Source of the DNA: Podarcis vaucheri
Taxonomy: Eukaryota
Direction: 5' to 3' (one strand)
DNA length: 64,000 nucleotides
Assembly: GCA_965113315.1 (NCBI GenBank)
Contig: OZ220365.1
The notes under the pieces were generated by a model, which was given only the letters and a program-made list of their open reading frames with translations, made no database searches and was not told the origin of the DNA. Shown here piece after piece: positions 712 to 61,104 of this stretch. Position numbers and translations under genes: made by a program. The stretch's first letter is position 1; each line of letters opens with the position of its first letter.

Positions 712-1984
712 CGTGTGATGTGTGCAATGTCACACACACCACACACCAGGCCCCCTAAACATTGAGGGGGGCCACCCCCCTTTCAACTATCAAGGGGGCA
801 AAGACACTTTGGCCCCCTAAAGTTGGAGCAGTTACACAGATCACCCAGTCAGTCGCCCTCACTATGATGAGAGGGATTGCATTTCTATTTAAATTATCAT
901 AATTAGCTCTAAATTTGTATATTAATACATACATTAGCATACATACTTTTTTGGCAAATATTATATTGTGGGGAGAGTGATGACTTCGTTCTTTTTTATG
1001 GTAAGTGTGCACCCTAGGAATCACTGATTTCAGTGAATGCAAGAGCAACCATAATGAACAAAAATGTCACAAGGAGCTCGCATTTGCAGTGGCAAAAATA
1101 GTCAAATAACTTAAGAATTGGTTCATGGTAAAATACAGCACATTTTTCTTCTTTTTCTTATTTTTAACTGTATGTTTATAGAGTTGGACTTTCTCCCATG
1201 GTCCTGTTGCTGCTGCTGCTGCCAGGATTAAGCCATAGTTTTACTTGTGAGCCCAGTCTCATTCTACACAAATCACAAGCTATAGCTTACCAGTTGTGGT
1301 TTGTTTGAGGGGAAACAAAACACCAGCATGGGTTTGGCATGGCACTAAGCCTTGCCAAGGGAGCAGGACCAAGGGAGGAGTGAAAGGGCCACAAGGTTTT
1401 GCTCTGTGCATCAGAATGCTGACCCATTCACACTTCATTTGACTTAGCCTTAAGTGTGAGCCTGAATAAATAAATAAACCCAAGCAATAAGAGAATAGCC
1501 TTGTGGGTTGCATCTAATCCAACGTCCTGTTGTTTTTATGTTGCCCTGAATGAAGTTGGTCTCCTTGCCTGGTTGTTTTCATCTTCTTGTATTCATATAT
1601 GCACTCCCTCCATACATGAAACATTCCTTTCCTTGTTAGTCTCCAAAGCATTCCCTGACAGCTCTCTCCATTGTAAATTATTTAGGGTAATTATTATTAA
1701 TTTAATACTTGCTTATGTCAGCAGCAGAGTTGTTTTCAGCATACCCCAATAGTTAGCGATGATGATAGGATGGCAGATTTTACATGTCAAAGAGTATACT
1801 AAAAAGTTGTATGCATACAGCTGAATGAACTTCAGTAAGTCAGTGGTGCGCCTACTTTAATTACAAACCTTGAACAAAACAAAACTCTGTCCTGCCTCGA
1901 AGACAACCTCTGTGGTATCAAAGTCCCCAGATCCTCAATGTTTGAGGGTTTGTTGTAGTTCTCTGCTGAGGTTGAGAAAAATCA

Positions 1985-2370
1985 ATGCTACATAGGCACA
2001 GCTAGGAGTAGCAGAGCCTCCACCAAAGATCTCAACACACAGGCAGGTCAAAATGAGAAAAGATGCTCCTTTAGGTATTTCAGTCCCAAGTTGCTTTAGA
2101 GCTTTTGAAGTTAACACAAGCACCTTGAATTTGGCATATAAGCTTTTTGGCAACCAGTGTGGTTCTTCAAGAATTAGTGTTATATTCTACCAACAGGCCA
2201 TCCCACATAAAAGTCTAGCCACATACTATAGCAGGTGCAACTTCTGGACCATCTTGAAGGGCAGCCTACAGTCCGTTTTTGAAGTTACCTGTGCATACCT
2301 CACTGTACCCAGGCAAACCCAGTCCAAGAACACCCATAGCTGGCAAACCAGATAAAACTAGCAAAAGCTG
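1985..2370 (-). mobile_element. Old degenerate L2 fragment
   Basis: Minus-strand translation AKFKVLVLTSKALKQLG matches the L2 ORF2 C-terminal motif of the 9101 copy. Confidence 0.7.
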
Positions 2371-3574
2371 TGCATCATCTCAGAGACCACTTTGCCTGTA
2401 GCAACAGTGCTGGATCCAAACCCATCCAGTTCAAGCAGCCTCCTAAATTATTGCCTGACTACCAACATTAATTTGAAGTGCTAGGCTGGGCTACTTGAAG
2501 GGCCCTCTTATCCCACACAAACCTCCTTGAAACCTTCATTTTTCATTTGAAGTTCCTTATTATTTGAAGCTATTATTATTATTTGAAGTTGTTCTTTCAA
2601 TCTCTTACTAGCCCTCTAACATAAGGTCTCAGGGCAGGTGGCAACAATCTAGAATTCAGTGCCTAAAACAAGTCAAAACAAATTAAAGTCACCGGAATAG
2701 CGGTGGGGTCACCTGACGTAGGTGGTGACCCCAAGGAGGGGCTTCTCTGTGGATGTGGAATTCCCTCAGCAAAGAAACTCACCTGGATCCAAACTTAGGT
2801 GTCTTTTCATCAGTAGGCAAAGACTCTTCTGTTTCTCCAGGCATTTCAGCATACTGTATGGCACAGGGTGTGTGCCAGGGGTGCATTATTTTAAAACTTT
2901 TGCTGCAGTTTCCATCGTTTTTCTTGTTTTGCTTTTACAATTCCATTGCTTAGTTTTAAAATGCTACCCTTCCCCAAGAGTTCTGTCACCAAAAGCTGAC
3001 TTATAACTTGACTTGTAATATAATTAATAGCACCCATTTACATTAGTGTAGCTGTTTGGATAGAAGATGATAAGAAAACACTACAGAAGCAATCAAATTA
3101 AACATGAGAGTGAGCAACTGGAGGCAGGGAATAGACTCACCAGAGTAGTAGAAATTACAATAGTTCAGCCTGCAATCACTATATTTTATCACTAGAGGGA
3201 GATCATTCTTAGTACAGTACTCCTGTTTAAACCCATCAACTCTATGAAATGCACACACACAAATACTGCCTATTTGTCTGGTCACATTCAGAGACTGGTT
3301 TTCTATCTGTTCCCTTGATTTCCTCCAATTCTATTAATGAGCATGCCTGTGCATTTAGCAATATATGGAATGAAAAATGGGCAGGCTGCTTGCAAAGACA
3401 GGCAAGAGGAAGAATACAGAGCACAAGCAAGCTGAGGACAAATGTGTTGATTTATTCTCCTGATCTGATATGCAAATTTCAGTCTTGGCAGGTCACCCTT
3501 GCTGACTTAAAGGAGCCATTCAGTTGTGTCTCTACAGTCATGTTTATACATATCTTTGCAGGTAACATTCTATG

Positions 3575-4137
3575 TGTCCGGAACCCCTGTCCTACCTGGC
3601 AGGAAGTCAGTACCTCAAGTCTCGAGTCCAAAGTCAGTCCTCATGTCCAAACTGAGGCACAGACCCACAGAGGACCCAAGCTGAGGCCAATCCACAGGGG
3701 CAGTTGTACAGACACAGCCCCTCAGCTCTGCTTCCCTTTTGTACTTTGCATGCTGATTGCAGCACCTGGGCTTGATGGCGCATATGACCCTCACCTGTTC
3801 CAAGCCTACTTCAGCTGAAGAATCACACCCCTCCCTCCTCCCACAGCTAAGGAGCTGGGCTGTGGGCCCTTGCCTGCCTCGGCCTGCAAGAGTGCCACTC
3901 CCACTGTTCCCTATACCTCAGAGCCCACTGTGTTTGTGGAAACAGGGGACCCTCTGGCTCTGGTGATGGGTCCTGATGGTCTGGTTCCTGTGCACTGCCC
4001 CCCATCCCTCATCAACCTGTGAGTGCTTCTTAATCTCTCCTTCCCAATCCACAGCTTGCCCTGGTGTGTCCCAATCCCAGCTACACCCCTTCCTAGGATC
4101 TTCCTCCTCCTCCTTGTTGTCCTGCCAGTTTGTGACA
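3575..4137 (-). mobile_element. Solo LTR (Gypsy-like), older
   Basis: TGTC...GACA termini; flanks CTATG (3570-3574) and CTGTG (4138-4142) form a 5-bp TSD with one mismatch; purine-rich minus strand as in the 46663 LTR. Confidence 0.6.
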
Positions 4138-16263: not shown

Positions 16264-16807
16264 TAATTGACTGTCAACTACAGGTGTATTACAACTGGTA
16301 TTTGTCTGCAGTCCCACGAATGCTTACCCCAAATGGAGTGCCATTGACATCAGTGGCATCAGGTGCCACATTTGCGCGGACAGGCAGAGTCCCCAGATCC
16401 CGCGCAGTCCCCCCCCATCATGTGAAATAACGACTCATGACAACTTGCTATGGGATTAAATTGGCCACAACTTTATTAAATTTCAGATGTGGGTAGACCT
16501 TGGCTCAGGCATTGGGCGTTCTCCCTCCCCAGTCCCCAGCCGGGGACCTAGGGAGCATCAGGGTCATCCAGTGTGTGTGTGGGGGGGATGGACCGGCTCT
16601 GGAGAACATATGTTCAAGCAGAGATGGCCACCCCCGTTGCGCCGCCGCCGCAGGGGAGAGCAATGACGACCTTTCGGCGTACGGTCAAAGCCTCCCTTCA
16701 GAAACCCCTTTAACGGGGAACCCTGGTATCGCCACCTCAAAGAGGAAGATGGACTAAAGGATTCCGCCCAAGGCCTGATACCGCCAAAGTTGTGACGTTT
16801 TGCTACG

Positions 16808-16846
16808 GGAAAGGCGAAACCTGCCAATGCAGGGAAATTCCTTTCC
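16808..16846 (-). ncRNA. ENE-like U-rich internal-loop RNA hairpin (copy A)
   Basis: Minus strand GGAAAGG-AAUUUC-CCUGC-AUUG-GCAGG-UUUCG-CCUUUCC: 7-bp stem, U-rich loop on both strands, 5-bp stem. Confidence 0.6.
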
Positions 16847-16885
16847 GGCCCTTTAACAGCGACCTTAACGTAGCAGCGCCCGCAT

Positions 16886-16939
16886 ACCTGTGAAGAAAAG
16901 TTAACCTGCAAAACCTGTGAAGAAAAGTTAACCTGCAAA
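16886..16939. repeat. 27-bp tandem duplication inside copy A
   Basis: ACCTGTGAAGAAAAGTTAACCTGCAAA x2, exact. Confidence 0.95.
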
Positions 16940-18239
16940 TAAGACATTAACTGAGGGTGGGTAGGGTGGGAGAAGCTCTGGAGCCAAGTGAGGATTCCCA
17001 GGTAAGATCCTCCCTCTATTGTGTGGGCAGGTAATCCCTCCCCTACCTGGCCTGGTCTCCTTGGCAACGCTTCCCCCAGGTGGGATTGGACAACTGACTG
17101 GGGTAGGCGGAGACCTCCAGGTATCCCACCTGCGTCCACGCAAAGGGTGCCCCCCGTTTTAAGCGTGGAGCGGTCATTCTCTCCCAGTTTTCCCCTGACA
17201 AATAATATGTCTCTTTGTCAACGATGGCCCACAGAAGCACTTCAAAAATATTAATTGGTGGGGTGAGCACAAACATGGAAGAGTTAATTACTACACTGGA
17301 GTGAAGTGATTGTCCTTAGGGGAAGATGACCTGTCAAGCGATAAAACTCACAAACAGCGCCTCATGAATATAAACACGGTTCACAGCTGACAGGATTATT
17401 TCAATGAGAGACCTCCAGGTCAAAGTGGCAGAAGTGAAAGTTCCTCACCCCTCACCTCTACGCATCATCAGCTAAAAGTGTTAGGGGATCTTGGGAATCG
17501 AGTGGCAAGATTTTTGGCCCAACGCATATGAGTCAGCACCTATGTGACAGCCATATGCAGTCTCCAATCATTAAATGGGCTATTTCCCCCCCTCTCTCCA
17601 TATGAAGCAGTCTTTGTCAGTTTGACAAGTGACTTTGTACAGGGTCAGTAAGCAAAGCTTGTACTTGAGGGCCTCCTCTCCCTCCTCCCCACCTTCTTGC
17701 CAGCATTTGGCTGAATTTAAAAACAGAAGCACAACCATGCCATCCTTATGCCTTTCTAAACAGCTTTAAGAAGGCATTTATTCTTCCCCAAAACCACCGT
17801 GTTCAGGGCTGCATGAAAACATGCTATTCGTGATTTTATTAAATGCTATTTATTTTCCACACAACAGCAGGTAGACTACTCCCAGCAATGGTTTAAAAGT
17901 ACCTCCAAGACTGTTGAGAGAGTGGGTGGTGGGGTGACAGTCTTTTACACGGGTATTGCTCTTGACAGGAAGTTTTATCTGAAGAAAATGAAGCAATTTT
18001 GATTCCTATATCAAATTACCCTTTATCAATCATTTAATACCAGACTTCTAATGTGCAGAACTATTTATAAAAAGGGCAAACAAGACAGATTCTCAGGGCT
18101 TCCTGCAGTAGACCAACATATGAATTCTTACATGCTTTGAGAATTGGAATGCCCTTGGCCCAATGCATGAAATGCATATTCAGTTAGCAGGGGTATATAA
18201 ATGGGCTCTACTTCAAAAGCTTTGGCTCTTCCCTAAAGG

Positions 18240-18400: not shown

Positions 18401-18508
18401 TGATCCCTTTCCCATCAAGATAATCCCTAGCATTGCACTTTTCTGTTACAGATGATGTACACTGGCTTCATGTAGTGATACATTGTGATCTTTTTGTTTG
18501 TTCTTTAT

Positions 18509-19295
18509 TTGCGTGTTCAGACACAGAAACCTCCCCCTAAATAAATTCATACTTGTCTCAAAATTTGGTTTTGGTTTTTGGCAGAATTTAGGCCACAACT
18601 TTATTGATTACAGAAAGTGAATGGTTGCATAGGCTCTGGTTTGACTAGCTGCCTGCCATGCAGATAACACTGACCCAGGGTTCCAGCATAGGTCAGCCAA
18701 GGGTGAACATCTGGATAAGTGGAAAGCTGGGAACAGGCTATCTCCGCCACCCAAATGTCCCCCTGGACTCAGGCACAGGCACAACCCCCTCTCAGGGGTT
18801 GACCAAACCAAGTTGAGTCCCTGGATTCCTTTAATGGAATACCCTTCACATAGGGATGGCGAGAGCGTTCTCCCATCCCTATCACCTGAACCAGTACCTA
18901 TCCGCAACCTTACAAGTTGTGATGATTTGCTACGCAGCAGGTGAAACCCAAATGGCAACAGCCAATCTGCCAAGTGGGAAAATTCCTGCCGTGTCCCTGT
19001 CCCAATGACAGACGACGGCATAGCAAGGTCAAACGCATAAGCCCTAAAAATAGGGAGGGGTGGGCGGGTGTTCCAAATGCATGCACCAAAAGAAGAAGCT
19101 CTGGGTCACGTGCATGGGCATAAATAGGTCCCTCAATCCCTTTGGACTCTGCCCCATTGGCCCAATTGAACCCAGCATTGAGGGACCTCCAATCGGGTGT
19201 TGTGGCTGACCAATCAAACCCACCCACAACACAGGGTGTCAGTTTCCAGGTCTCACTGCAATATGTGCCCTCTTTAAAGGAGGACCCAATTTCCA
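18509..19295 (-). mobile_element. Non-coding retroelement terminal segment, copy B
   Basis: Same motif blocks as copy A; AATAAA at 18600-18605 (minus); CCAAT boxes and TATTTAT in the 5' part. Confidence 0.7.
18935..18991 (-). ncRNA. ENE-like U-rich internal-loop hairpin (copy B)
   Basis: CGGCAGG-AAUUUU-CCCA-cu-UGGCA-loop-UGCCA-uu-UGGG-UUUCA-CCUGCUG; stem sequences differ from copy A but still pair. Confidence 0.6.
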
Positions 19296-32370: not shown

Positions 32371-32495
32371 CCAGCCTTTCTCAACCTTGGGTCCCCAGCT
32401 GTTGTTGGACTACAACTCCCATCATCCCTGACCACTGGTGCTGCTAGCTAGGCATAATGGGAGTCGTAGTCCAATAACAGCTGGGGTTCAGAAAG
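32371..32495. mobile_element. Palindromic MITE-like repeat (GGACTACAACTCCCATCA family)
   Basis: Self-complementary CCCCAGCTGTTGTTGGACTACAACTCCCAT...ATGGGAGTCGTAGTCCAATAACAGCTGGGG; relatives at about 35890-35970, 38960-39050 and 59575-59705. Confidence 0.7.
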
Positions 32496-38660: not shown

Positions 38661-39291
38661 AAATATGGTTCGCTGTTCAAAGGCTGGGGGGGGGGAGAGA
38701 GAGAGAGTTGAAAATTGTGCAGAGTGTGCCTAAAATAGGTTTCTGAAATGCTTTATTCAAATGGTGGAAGGGGCTAAATATGTGATGTATATTGCAATAA
38801 TTTATACTATATCTATGCCATCAGAAACATGTTCTCTTTTCTATTAATAAGCAACTAACCCAGCACAATCCTTTACATGTCTACCCAGCAGTCCCATTAA
38901 CTTGAACAGGGCTTACTCCCAGATAAGTAGCTATAGCAGAGATAGTCAGTGTAATCCAGACGTTGCTGGACTGCAACTTCCATCATCCCTGACCATTGGC
39001 CATGATGCCTGGGGCTGATGGGAGTTGTAGTCCAGCTGTATCTGAAGGCCACCATGCAAGCTGTTTGTGAAGGAATCTGTATTTTTTATTTTTGTGCGGT
39101 ATCTGGAATTTCCCATGATGATTAACATCTTGTTATTAAATGGTCAACTAAGAAACAAGACTAAGGATGACCTTTGAGGATTTACTTCTGAAGAAATGGG
39201 CTAGGGGTACATTGAAAGGCTGCAATTCTATGCACCTTACTTGGGATAAAGTTTCACTGAAGTCAACGGGAGTGCCATGAGCCTTGCAACC

Positions 39292-57989: not shown

Positions 57990-58506
57990 GTGACCTGTTT
58001 CCCCACAACTCCTCTCCAGTAGTGACAGGAGTTTTTTCTAATTGGCAAATTGGCACCAGCCTCTTGGTTTTTTTCGTCTACCTCGTAGCAATCGTCACAA
58101 CTTTCTTGGTATATGGCGGTTAGGTATTGGAATGTGGTGTTGATGTATGGAAGGGCAAGGTGTGGCCATTGCCTACCCCTTCACTTATGGGTATTCCGTT
58201 AAAGGAATCTGGTGGTCGTGGATCCTGTCTGATGCCCTGTGGCGGAGGGCCATGGCACGACCCTCGGTGACATCAGGGGGGAGCTTATAGTTGTATTTGC
58301 ATCAAAAGGCTCCCCCTACTGGTGGTTAACCCCTCATCAGGCTCATCCCTCTAGGAGTGGGTGGAGTCAAATTTGCTGTGGTCCAATGCCTAAGCCAATA
58401 CCTTCTCACATGCTGTAATCAATAAAGTTGTGACCTTTTCTAACCTAATATACTATGTCCACGTGTCTTCATTCCCCCAAGCGGGGATTGGGTCCTCGAA
58501 TCACAA
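57990..58506 (+). mobile_element. Non-coding retroelement terminal segment, copy C (older; 5' limit uncertain)
   Basis: CAGGAGTTTTTT..TTTTTTTCGTCT..CGTAGCAATCGTCACAACTTT and AATAAAGTTGTGACC (58421); ends ..TCACAA. Confidence 0.65.
58023..58083 (+). ncRNA. Degenerate ENE-like hairpin (copy C)
   Basis: AG-U6 / U7-CG internal loop; upper stem CUAA/UUGG plus GGC/GCC; lower stem only 4 of 7 paired. Confidence 0.4.
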
Positions 58507-61104
58507 TCTGCCAGCTTTTGGTTATTCTCTTCTGAACTCCCATATTCCTTTTCTGCTGTCCCCATCAGTTCTCTCAAACTTTCCTGGTAGTAGGAAGGAG
58601 AATCCTCAGCAGCAAAATCTCTCCCCACCCCTTGTCTCTTTTTTCTGGAGGTTTCTCCCTAGTGTTTCCTTTTTAGCACCCGTGATGCTGTAGCAGGAGA
58701 GGACCTGGTGCAATGCAGAGCTCAAGGCCTCCATAAGAAACAGGAAAAAGTGGGAAAAGGCAGAGGCCTCCTAACAGGATAGATAATCTGCAATCGTCAA
58801 TGATGCTGCTGCACATTCTGTGCCATCAGTCAGTTGAGAACAAGTCAAGGTAAGGGGACAGCAATGGAGAAAGGAATGGGTTGCAACTATGAAGGGTAGA
58901 CCCTAATGAGAACATAGCATGAGACCTGCTGAATCAGACCAAAGGCCCATCCAGTCTAGCATTCTGTTCTTTATAGTGGTCAACCAGAAGCCACAGCAGA
59001 TGCTGCAATTCTCCAACGCTTTGACTTTACCCCCAAAGGCACACTCTTCCATTGTCTCTTGAGACAGACAAATGGCAACAATGTTTTAATGCACAAAGTA
59101 AAACTAAGTCGGCCCTAACTTGCATCCTTCATAAATCATACATAAACAGATTGTCAAAGCTTCTTCCTGTCCTGCTAAGTATATTTCCTATTCCTTTCTT
59201 TGCAAATAGAAGCAAGCCCTGGAATGTTCACTTCATGATGAGTTATTGAAATAGCTATCATAAATTACACGTGAAAGCTGAACATTTCTAAGTATACCAT
59301 GACTGTACTCCCCAAAACACTTGTTCTTCTGCTGCGGCATTTGCACCAATCTAAAATATCATCCTTCAGCATTTAAAAGCTACAGGGGAAGTCCACAATA
59401 GTCTTCTTTAGCTTCACAACTACAGTACTTACTTGTTGATAAAATTGTATCCAGCAGCCTGTCAAAAGGAATTGCATATGTAATCCATTTGTCAGTTATT
59501 TTATAATGTATTATTTCAAGGCTATCAAATTGACAAGATTGAAGAATATTTTCCCCTTTTTTCTGCATCCACACCAGGGATGGGGAACCTTTGGCTCTCC
59601 AGATTGCTGAACTTCAACTCCCCTCATCTCTGGTCATTGGCCATGCTTGCTTGGGTTGGTGGGAGTTCAAGTTCAGGCACATCGAGTTCCAAGATTCCTC
59701 ATCCCTGAGGTAGGCTGTAACATTCCAGACATTTCTAGAAGGATCAGTACCAGCACCCTTTGGAGTCAGGGATTATGGGAAATGTAGTCTAAGAATATCT
59801 GAAGGACCAAAGGCTTCCCATTCCTAATATACAGAAAATTCCAGAAAACACTAACCACATAATCAAAAGCCTGATCCACTTTCGTCCACTATAATATAGC
59901 TAAAACTTGGATGAGCATATTTTGTAAGAGATAAGGATACAAAAGAACCATGATGATCCTGATTCCCTTTGGCCTTAGTACTTTAAACAGACCCATAATG
60001 GGATACAGGTTTTTATTTATGTGCTGTAAAAAAGCTGTAAAAGCTGTAAATAATCAATTATTCCTATGTTTTCAGCCTTCATAAAAATTGATGTGCATTC
60101 CTTCTGCAATAAAATCAGCATAACATGCTGGACTAAAGTAACCACATGAGTAAATACTTGGTTGGCCTGGGGCCTAATTAGCAATTGTTTCCCTTACCTA
60201 AGCTGGCTCACATCACTTCACTTAACATTCAGTGCTCTTCTCAAGAGGCCATTGAAAACTGGGACATGAGTCCATCAGGGAGAGAATTCTGTCAAAGTCC
60301 TCACACTCTTGCATCTTACTAATAGCACAGCCTTGCCTATTCATTGGTACCTGTCATGATGAGGAGTTACATTAAGTTTATTAATTACCAATTGTAATTG
60401 ATGCTCAGAAGAAGTTTACTACCGAGGGGAGAAATCTCAAACAGCTCCTTTGTTCTACGAAAACATATAAATATGAGAGGAATACGGTAGGTCATAGTTC
60501 AAGAAAATATATGCAGGTGATTGATTGAAAAGGGCTATTAGACACTTCATAATTTTATGCTTTTAGGTCAAAGCCTTTATCAAAATGGATTTTTAAAAAG
60601 CTAGGGACAATGTTTGACAAGAAAAGCCAACCCAAATGATAAAAGGTTCTAGCACCTTGTTTTCCAGGAAAGGAAGGCTAAAGTACTGGGGAATTTTTGT
60701 GCACGGGGGGGGGGGGAGACCAGCAATGAGGGAGGACATGACAGACAGACATTTATAAAATAATCCATGATTTGGGAAAAGTAGACAAAAAATGCTCTTT
60801 ATCTTCCATAGTATTAGAACTTGGAGGTCACACATTGAAACTGATTGCCTGTAGATTCTGAACTGACAAAGGAAAGTCTTTATCACACAACACACAATGA
60901 AATTATGGAAGTCTCTGTGACGCAGTGCGATAGCCATGGTACTGTGGTAATGGCTTAAACATATTCCTGGCAATAGTTACTAACTACAAGAGAAATATAT
61001 ATCACTGGGCTAAATATGCATATACGTCTTCAGTTCATAGCACTGAATTATATTGGAATAGATCCCCACCCCCCACCCCCAGAAATGTTGTAATTTGCAA
61101 TATC

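Follow-up and report, generated by a model that had tools for sequence, protein, structure and literature searches.

The window analysed here, 64,000 nucleotides of the lizard Podarcis vaucheri (contig OZ220365.1), contains three copies (A, B and C) of a sequence in which an AAUAAA hexamer follows a hairpin with a U-rich internal loop. The motif of hexamer plus complementary arm occurs three times in the window, where 0.02 occurrences are expected. The original prediction held that covarying long-range helices fold the poly(A) site back beside this ENE-like hairpin in all three copies and partly occlude AAUAAA. The question raised by the locus is what kind of element the copies belong to, and what such a fold would do for its RNA.

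Identity and architecture of the element

The three copies are solo A-spacer-B units of Ngaro tyrosine-recombinase retrotransposons and not host elements; for copy B, the Ngaro origin would follow from shared ends and motifs only. The coordinates of their parts are collected in Table 1. In the 1.6-Gb genome the repeat families of copies A, B and C comprise 1742, 3320 and 3636 first-look candidates, respectively, and 40 per family were scored. The solo units are ~790–870 bp long with the fixed termini AAT...CAA(T/A), and a target-site duplication of at least 4 nt is present in 1 of 27. A host regulatory element was rejected. A solo LTR of a retrovirus or LTR retrotransposon was rejected as well, since the ends are not TG...CA and the duplication is confined to that one unit. 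A DIRS1-like element with inverted terminal repeats and an ICR was rejected because the repeats are direct; the inverted pair on C1 consists of two separate solo units. The RT fragments and dispersed repeats elsewhere in the window we take to be squamate LINEs and SINEs. Two dispersed hairpin repeats, at 32398-32481 and 38959-39042, match Rfam mir-5408 below the gathering score and are probably MITE-like.

Table 1. Features of copies A, B and C in the window
Feature	Position	Strand	Remarks
Copy A, solo A-spacer-B unit, Ngaro family A	16371..17178	-	808 bp; relatives 826-870 bp; same unit as A2-spacer-B2 of longer elements
A repeat, copy A	16969..17178	-	internal deletion; likely part of the promoter
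Enclosing helix 0 around small hairpin and ENE-like hairpin, copy A	16801..16875 (16869-16875 with 16801-16807)	-	predicted
ENE-like hairpin, copy A	16808..16846	-	internal loop with 3 U per side; lies in the spacer, hence only before B2
Helix 1 5' arm, copy A	16786..16796	-	ends at the B boundary; not before B1
B repeat, copy A	16371..16786	-	starts TGGCGG; sequence common to B1 and B2 from here on
Helix 2 5' arm, copy A	16765..16787	-	with GG-containing bulge
Small hairpin with GUUAAA loop, copy A	16705..16718	-	conserved and covarying between families
Helix 2 3' arm, copy A	16500..16518	-
Segment pairing with the B1-specific antisense arm in full-length elements	16478..16504	-
AAUAAA hexamer, copy A	16472..16477	-
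Helix 1 3' arm, copy A	16464..16474	-	final three A of the hexamer plus GUUGUGGC
CCA, predicted cleavage site, copy A	16451..16453	-	ends 21 nt past the hexamer; in 38/38 family-A sequences
Copy B, solo unit, second family	18508..19291	-
ENE-like hairpin, copy B	18936-18990	-
Helix 1 arm, copy B	18914-18923	-
Hexamer, copy B	18600-18605	-
CCA, copy B	18579-18581	-
Copy C, 5'-truncated solo unit, third family	58022..58507	+
ENE-like hairpin, copy C	58025-58082	+
Helix 1 arm, copy C	58094-58103	+
Hexamer, copy C	58421-58426	+	CCA after the hexamer lost

Full-length elements of these Ngaro have the layout A1-gag-RT-YR-SGNH-B1-A2-spacer-B2, with direct repeats. For family A, a search for the head-to-tail junction pattern found 11 places, all with the order B1-A2-spacer-B2 and four with a separate upstream A1, which corresponds to positions 1-267 of the solo unit. 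Broken RT-, YR- and SGNH-like frames lie between A1 and B1 at these loci; in the broken copy L084 a profile search gave no RT or YR match, and the fragments were recognised by eye. A permuted element (A-spacer-B-A-ORFs-B) was seen at none of the 11 family-A B/A junctions (L083-L093), though a circle would carry two identical junctions. The junction-pattern search for full-length elements of families B and C gave 0 and 0 matches. A complete family-C solo unit is 70-71% identical over ~825 nt to the A2-spacer-B2 part of L203 and L214.

From 150 SGNH matches listed, 100 loci were taken for analysis. Both B copies are present in 31 elements (30 of these 100 loci plus L084), which fall into seven clusters. 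Locus L155 matches the profiles RVT_1 (E 3e-14) and Phage_integrase (E 1e-6) above the cut-off, and SGNH frames that follow YR, that of L155 included, match Lipase_GDSL_2 (E 5e-5 and 4e-4) below the Pfam cut-off. SGNH is in frame with the preceding YR stop in several families (L137, L138, L155, L203 and L206) and in another frame in others (L156, L194), and a pyrimidine-rich stretch ahead of it may point to a splice acceptor. A single 41-Mb contig holds a large share of the SGNH matches and 7 of the 11 family-A junctions, several within near-identical duplicated blocks. A second B is absent from 58 of 89 hexamer-bearing SGNH loci (L124-L223), nearly all of which, by inspection, stop at the B terminus and continue into unrelated flank. 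Such loci are apparently what is left behind when a solo unit forms, the reciprocal product either of repeat recombination or of the recombinase acting between two B/A junctions.

Ngaro elements with an SGNH hydrolase have been described in Xenopus (DIRS-53_XT and DIRS-54_XT, PMC9210276), and solo AB repeats have been described for Cafeteria Ngaro (PMC8547959). The lizard elements share with known SGNH Ngaro the split direct repeats (A1-B1A2B2), the gag-like, RT, YR and SGNH frames, and solos derived from the repeats. They differ in the length of B, ~360-410 bp here versus 152 bp, and in the 150-180 bp spacer between A2 and B2.

Helices 1 and 2 and the ENE-like hairpin

The six predicted duplexes, helices 1 and 2 in each copy, are all present where they had been placed. 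The helix 1 duplexes have energies of -12.8 (A), -9.4 (B) and -13.4 kcal/mol (C). For helix 2 the values are -28.6 (A), -23.3 (B, 18889-18909 with 18623-18641) and -21.3 kcal/mol (C, 58114-58131 with 58382-58397). The fold of copy A has a z score of -4.6, and none of 100 shuffles was equally stable.

Seventeen copies from 10 families were aligned. Because the 114 sequences from which they were drawn had been chosen by the presence of the hexamer and of the 3' hairpin strand, the conservation of these two motifs is partly a selection effect. RNAalifold recovered helix 1, the inner part of helix 2 and the lower stem of the hairpin unprompted, and the whole structure is 91% paired in the alignment, compared with 29-52% when the partners are slid. 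The description of the helices as covarying holds for helix 2, where 6 of 13 pairs are changed on both sides, and fails for helix 1, where this is the case for 0 of 11; four of these 11 pairs vary, on one side only. In the lower stem of the hairpin, 2 of 6 pairs are changed on both sides. Duplex energies agree with this division: cognate helix 2 arms pair at -31.2 versus -24.6 kcal/mol across families, and helix 1 arms pair equally well between families (-12.7 versus -12.7).

Helix 1 had been described as occurring in all three copies and as perfect in copy C. The perfect match of copy C is a change absent from all 19 family-C relatives, and 15 of the 17 aligned copies keep a U-G pair at this position. 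In copy A, helix 1 is not part of the favoured fold (P = 0.03, 2.4 kcal/mol above the best), because the helix-1 arm lengthens helix 2 instead. Helix 1 is predicted with P > 0.5 in 22 of 33 folded copies, in none of the five from family A, and is disfavoured in 11 of the 33. Its G-U pairs number 22 on the sense versus 5 on the antisense strand, which supports a conserved fold of the sense strand; helix 2 shows little bias (13 versus 10).

The strongest covariation in the alignment belongs to the small hairpin with a GUUAAA-like loop inside B (columns 251-264, with 10 and 6 both-side changes by RNAalifold), which is present in all 10 families and lies at 18826-18839 in copy B and at 58194-58207 in copy C. 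By eye, 17127-17145 is complementary to 16371-16387, so a stretch in the 5' part of family-A units matches the complement of their last 17 bases.

The predicted ENE-like hairpin was found, and it occurs only before the last B copy. Its internal loop is U-rich on both strands and adjoined by G-C pairs, as in known ENEs; the U-runs on the two sides count 5-7 in families G, C, H, I and F and 3-4 in families A, D and B, and the G-C pair beside the loop is kept in 17 of 17 aligned copies. Rfam gave no relevant match in the window or in L137:6600-8000, and the viral contigs contained neither an ENE-like match nor a YR relative. The U-rich loop pattern has four matches in 80 distant loci, none of them in a mapped B2 spacer. 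In distant Ngaro without SGNH (L249-L306), a conserved CTCCAC...GTGTGA hairpin was noticed by eye just before B2, where the lizard elements have the U-rich hairpin. A likeness to CR1 3' ends was considered and dropped, as a search of this genome gave no match.

The hairpin resembles the single-domain ENE of KSHV PAN and the transposon ENEs (Evade/Copia93, PMC12501189; reviewed in PMC7583470) in being a stem-loop whose U-rich internal loop adjoins G-C pairs, and in its location ahead of the 3' end, in unique spacer before the last repeat. It differs from them in its host, a lizard tyrosine-recombinase element; the review lists plants, fungi, slime mould and stickleback retroviruses (PMC7583470). 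It would also differ in the long-range helix that is predicted to tether the 3' end beside the loop, and in families A, B and D the loop is short.

A different arm before each B copy and a proposed choice of poly(A) site

The position of the B boundary is documented for 12 of the 31 two-B elements. B starts with TGGCGG, directly past the helix-1 arm in family A and ~10 nt past it in most others; in L203 and L214, the identity of B1 and B2 begins a few bases later than TGGCGG. Because B starts just 3' of the helix-1 arm, this arm and the ENE-like hairpin precede B2 only, whereas the hexamer is in both B copies and helix 2 can form at either. Ahead of B1 there is instead a short hairpin and a different arm of ~25 nt. 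This arm is absent from the window, and its complement is the stretch bounded by helix 2 and the hexamer.

The B1 arm is matched to its own family. Across 13 families, cognate pairs have -28.8 versus -18.7 kcal/mol for cross-family pairs. None of 100000 label permutations was as good, and within clades 3 of 720 and 43 of 5040 were; these are counts rather than probabilities, because the families are related. Of the 13 families, 8 have their cognate partner as the column optimum and 4 as the row optimum, and the old family O fits badly. RNAalifold recovers the fold of the B1 arm unaided, with both-side changes at 10 of 11 predicted pairs. The arm covers one to three bases of the hexamer in 8 of the 13 families, not including family A, and stops 1-7 nt short of it in the other five. 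In several families it partly overlaps the end of the SGNH frame, so some of its conservation may be coding.

The B1 arm contains 41 G-U pairs on the sense and 9 on the antisense strand. This excess, like that of helix 1, would mean mismatches on first-strand cDNA, and together with the compensatory changes between families it argues against pairings that act in single-stranded DNA or are functionless relics of an inverted duplication. A DNA-level role or such an origin fits with the linear, single-stranded cDNA of DIRS-1 (PMC7192593), with the weak bias of helix 2, and with the B1 arm losing its sense-strand advantage when DNA energies are used (9 of 17), but we consider it highly improbable. 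The elements are like DIRS-1 in that complementarity is tied to the termini of a DIRS-order element. They are unlike it in that in DIRS-1 the pairing is one of cDNA, between the internal complementary region and the inverted terminal repeats, in contrast to the direct repeats, imperfect pairing and sense-strand G-U bias seen here (PMC7192593).

The layout of the poly(A) signal is canonical, as had been supposed. Among 113 hexamer-selected sequences, from which one cluster of B1 context is left out, 111 have a CCA that ends 20-22 nt past the hexamer, and 63 have a UGUA within 14 nt upstream of the hexamer. For 14 of the 31 two-B elements, the cost of opening the hexamer was calculated. In an RNA that ends at the hexamer, this cost is 1.0-3.4 kcal/mol at B1 versus 0.0-0.1 at B2 in 13 of the 14, and for the hexamer with the eight upstream bases the median is 12.05 versus 0.5. 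With 25 further bases, the medians for the hexamer alone become about equal (3.55 at B1, 2.65 at B2), as helix 1 partly closes B2, and a difference between the copies persists in the upstream segment only (10.75 versus 4.1). An exception is family A, with 0.0-0.1 at B1 versus 1.4-1.7 at B2 and thus no occlusion of B1. The claim that the fold occludes AAUAAA at the last copy is not supported as it was put, since this would block the site that the element needs; occlusion is predicted at B1, before the downstream arm exists, by an arm outside the window.

Our preferred reading of these folding calculations, to which we would give an even chance, is that the main role of the fold is a copy-specific switch for the choice of poly(A) site, combined with protection of the tail. 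As the complementary arm ahead of each B copy is a different one, two alternative folds of the RNA are predicted. At B1, helix 2 would close a 300-nt domain, and the B1 arm would pair with the upstream element, often including the first bases of AAUAAA, as soon as this is transcribed. The pairing would lower cleavage there, and the first poly(A) signal would be read through, perhaps only in part; an incomplete block is conceivable, since an RNA ending at B1 still carries all ORFs. At B2 the hexamer would emerge unpaired, and the RNA would be cut at the CCA 20-22 nt downstream. After cleavage, the closing of helix 1 would leave ~12 nt between the tail and the base of the U-rich hairpin; this hairpin may then hold the poly(A) in a triple helix and so make the genomic RNA more stable.

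Several of the results above speak against the switch, namely family A without B1 occlusion, helix 1 without covariation, the arm that stays short of the hexamer in 5 of 13 families, the similar cost for the hexamer alone once 25 more bases are present, and the 3-4 U in families A, D and B. The raw reads on L084:1041-2329 in four runs of the same species (16, 14, 121 and 99) are few, come from both strands and show no pile-up of ends; with no poly(A) loose end among them and nothing covering the sequence just upstream of B1, they neither show nor exclude use of the sites. In two runs, stranded sense reads over the end of SGNH (L084:2078-2329) share one stopping point; their apparent source is a single truncated copy. 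None of the matches listed for copy A is an RNA record, and a search of the genome for polyadenylated retrocopies gave one match, a whole solo unit with an expanded A-run and not a retrocopy.

The predicted switch is like the retroviral choice of poly(A) site, in which identical duplicated signals are used depending on context and RNA structure, as with the polyA hairpin and U1 of HIV-1 (PMC5961354) and the flanking context or RNA structure in foamy virus (PMC3694450). It is unlike the retroviruses in that the 3' end holds the two signals, with ~800 nt between them, and in that a copy-specific 300-nt long-range arm, not a local hairpin, makes up the context. The hexamer does not sit in a local hairpin of the HIV type; its partners lie ~300 nt upstream and cover at most three of its bases.

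The B boundary, reverse transcription and relation to known systems

The sharp start of B also bears on the main alternative reading, in which the fold chiefly flags the points where reverse transcription begins, halts or changes template. RT/RNase H would recognise the UGGC-GG bulge, for instance to self-prime once helix 2 has been cut, or as a second-strand primer at B1, and the poly(A) signal and the hairpin would be later additions in this lineage. As the main role we find this doubtful. The original prediction had itself named complementarity at the cDNA level only, as in DIRS-type circularisation, as an alternative, and a role in replication fits the identity of the elements as members of the DIRS order and the position of the B boundary at the helices. 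B1 and B2 are homogenised from end to end, and the 5' limit of this homogenisation is sharp: in 15 of 18 family-G elements there are 138 shared variants versus 16 and 12 in single copies, and the 5'-most bin has 16 shared variants versus 0. Because variants are shared up to this boundary, some synthesis step starts or stops there. The boundary is at TGGCGG, between the arms.

The same motif is found in distant relatives. Four of 80 distant loci carry SGNH, and in three of these TTGGCGG and then a predicted hairpin follow 59-211 nt after it; the fourth has only 71 nt of sequence. The three are the sole occurrences in 16,434 nt, and L270 repeats TGGCGG past the hairpin, as in lizard B1. Arms were compared in 9 of 13 distant two-B elements. 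In six of the nine, the best pre-B2 arm stops right at the boundary and is aimed at the segment that the pre-B1 arm also targets; shuffle controls for these arms are modest, with 0-19 of 40 shuffles reaching the observed value. Since none of the nine has AATAAA in B (three have ATTAAA) yet six keep two arms onto one B segment, the layout needs no hexamer. The primer of DIRS-order elements is unknown, as stated for DIRS-1 (PMC7192593).

Self-priming from the end of helix 1 is disfavoured, because it would lose the arm or restore a perfect complement, and the U-G pair persists in 15 of 17 copies. A role in reverse transcription also leaves unexplained why the B1 arm ends at the hexamer and why the loop is U-rich. 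It is compatible with the switch in poly(A) site, and both can hold.

The domain might instead be a scaffold that is bound by a Gag-like protein and marks full-length RNA for packaging, its overlap with the poly(A) signal being incidental. This we regard as improbable, since a putative scaffold does not account for two different arms or for the U-rich internal loop, even though the conserved loops with covarying stems (the GUUAAA hairpin and the GG bulge) and a CCCH zinc-finger-like match in ORF1, below the Pfam cut-off, would suit it, and the 5' AAUAAA of HIV-1 also acts in packaging (PMC5961354).

In the literature covered, which extends neither to Goodwin and Poulter 2004 nor to Tycowski 2016 with its tables or to Repbase, no description of an RNA structure, an ENE or a choice of poly(A) site was found for Ngaro. 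PMC9210276 has no mention of 'polyadenylation', and neither its passages on Ngaro nor those of PMC8547959 name a poly(A) signal or an RNA structure; PMC3783388 contributes nothing on structure. Thus, a known element carries known kinds of RNA device in an arrangement that is apparently undescribed.

With the switch and tail protection as our preferred reading, a wider proposal is that in SGNH-bearing Ngaro one RNA switch does three jobs, choosing between an end at B1 (message) and one at B2 (genome), clamping the tail of the genome only through the ENE, and starting reverse transcription at the UGGC-GG bulge of the B boundary. We think this unlikely in full; if it were true, the ancient bulge would supply the primer that DIRS-order elements so far lack. 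The poly(A) signal of Ngaro elements is present twice, and no primer is known for them; for both questions the fold names the bases to mutate, in the arms unique to B1 or B2 and in a B-boundary motif that is kept in very distant relatives. If the preferred reading is true, ENE-type protection of the tail extends to a tyrosine-recombinase retrotransposon of a land vertebrate. With 1,700-3,600 first-look candidates per window family, many host transcripts may cross such signals.
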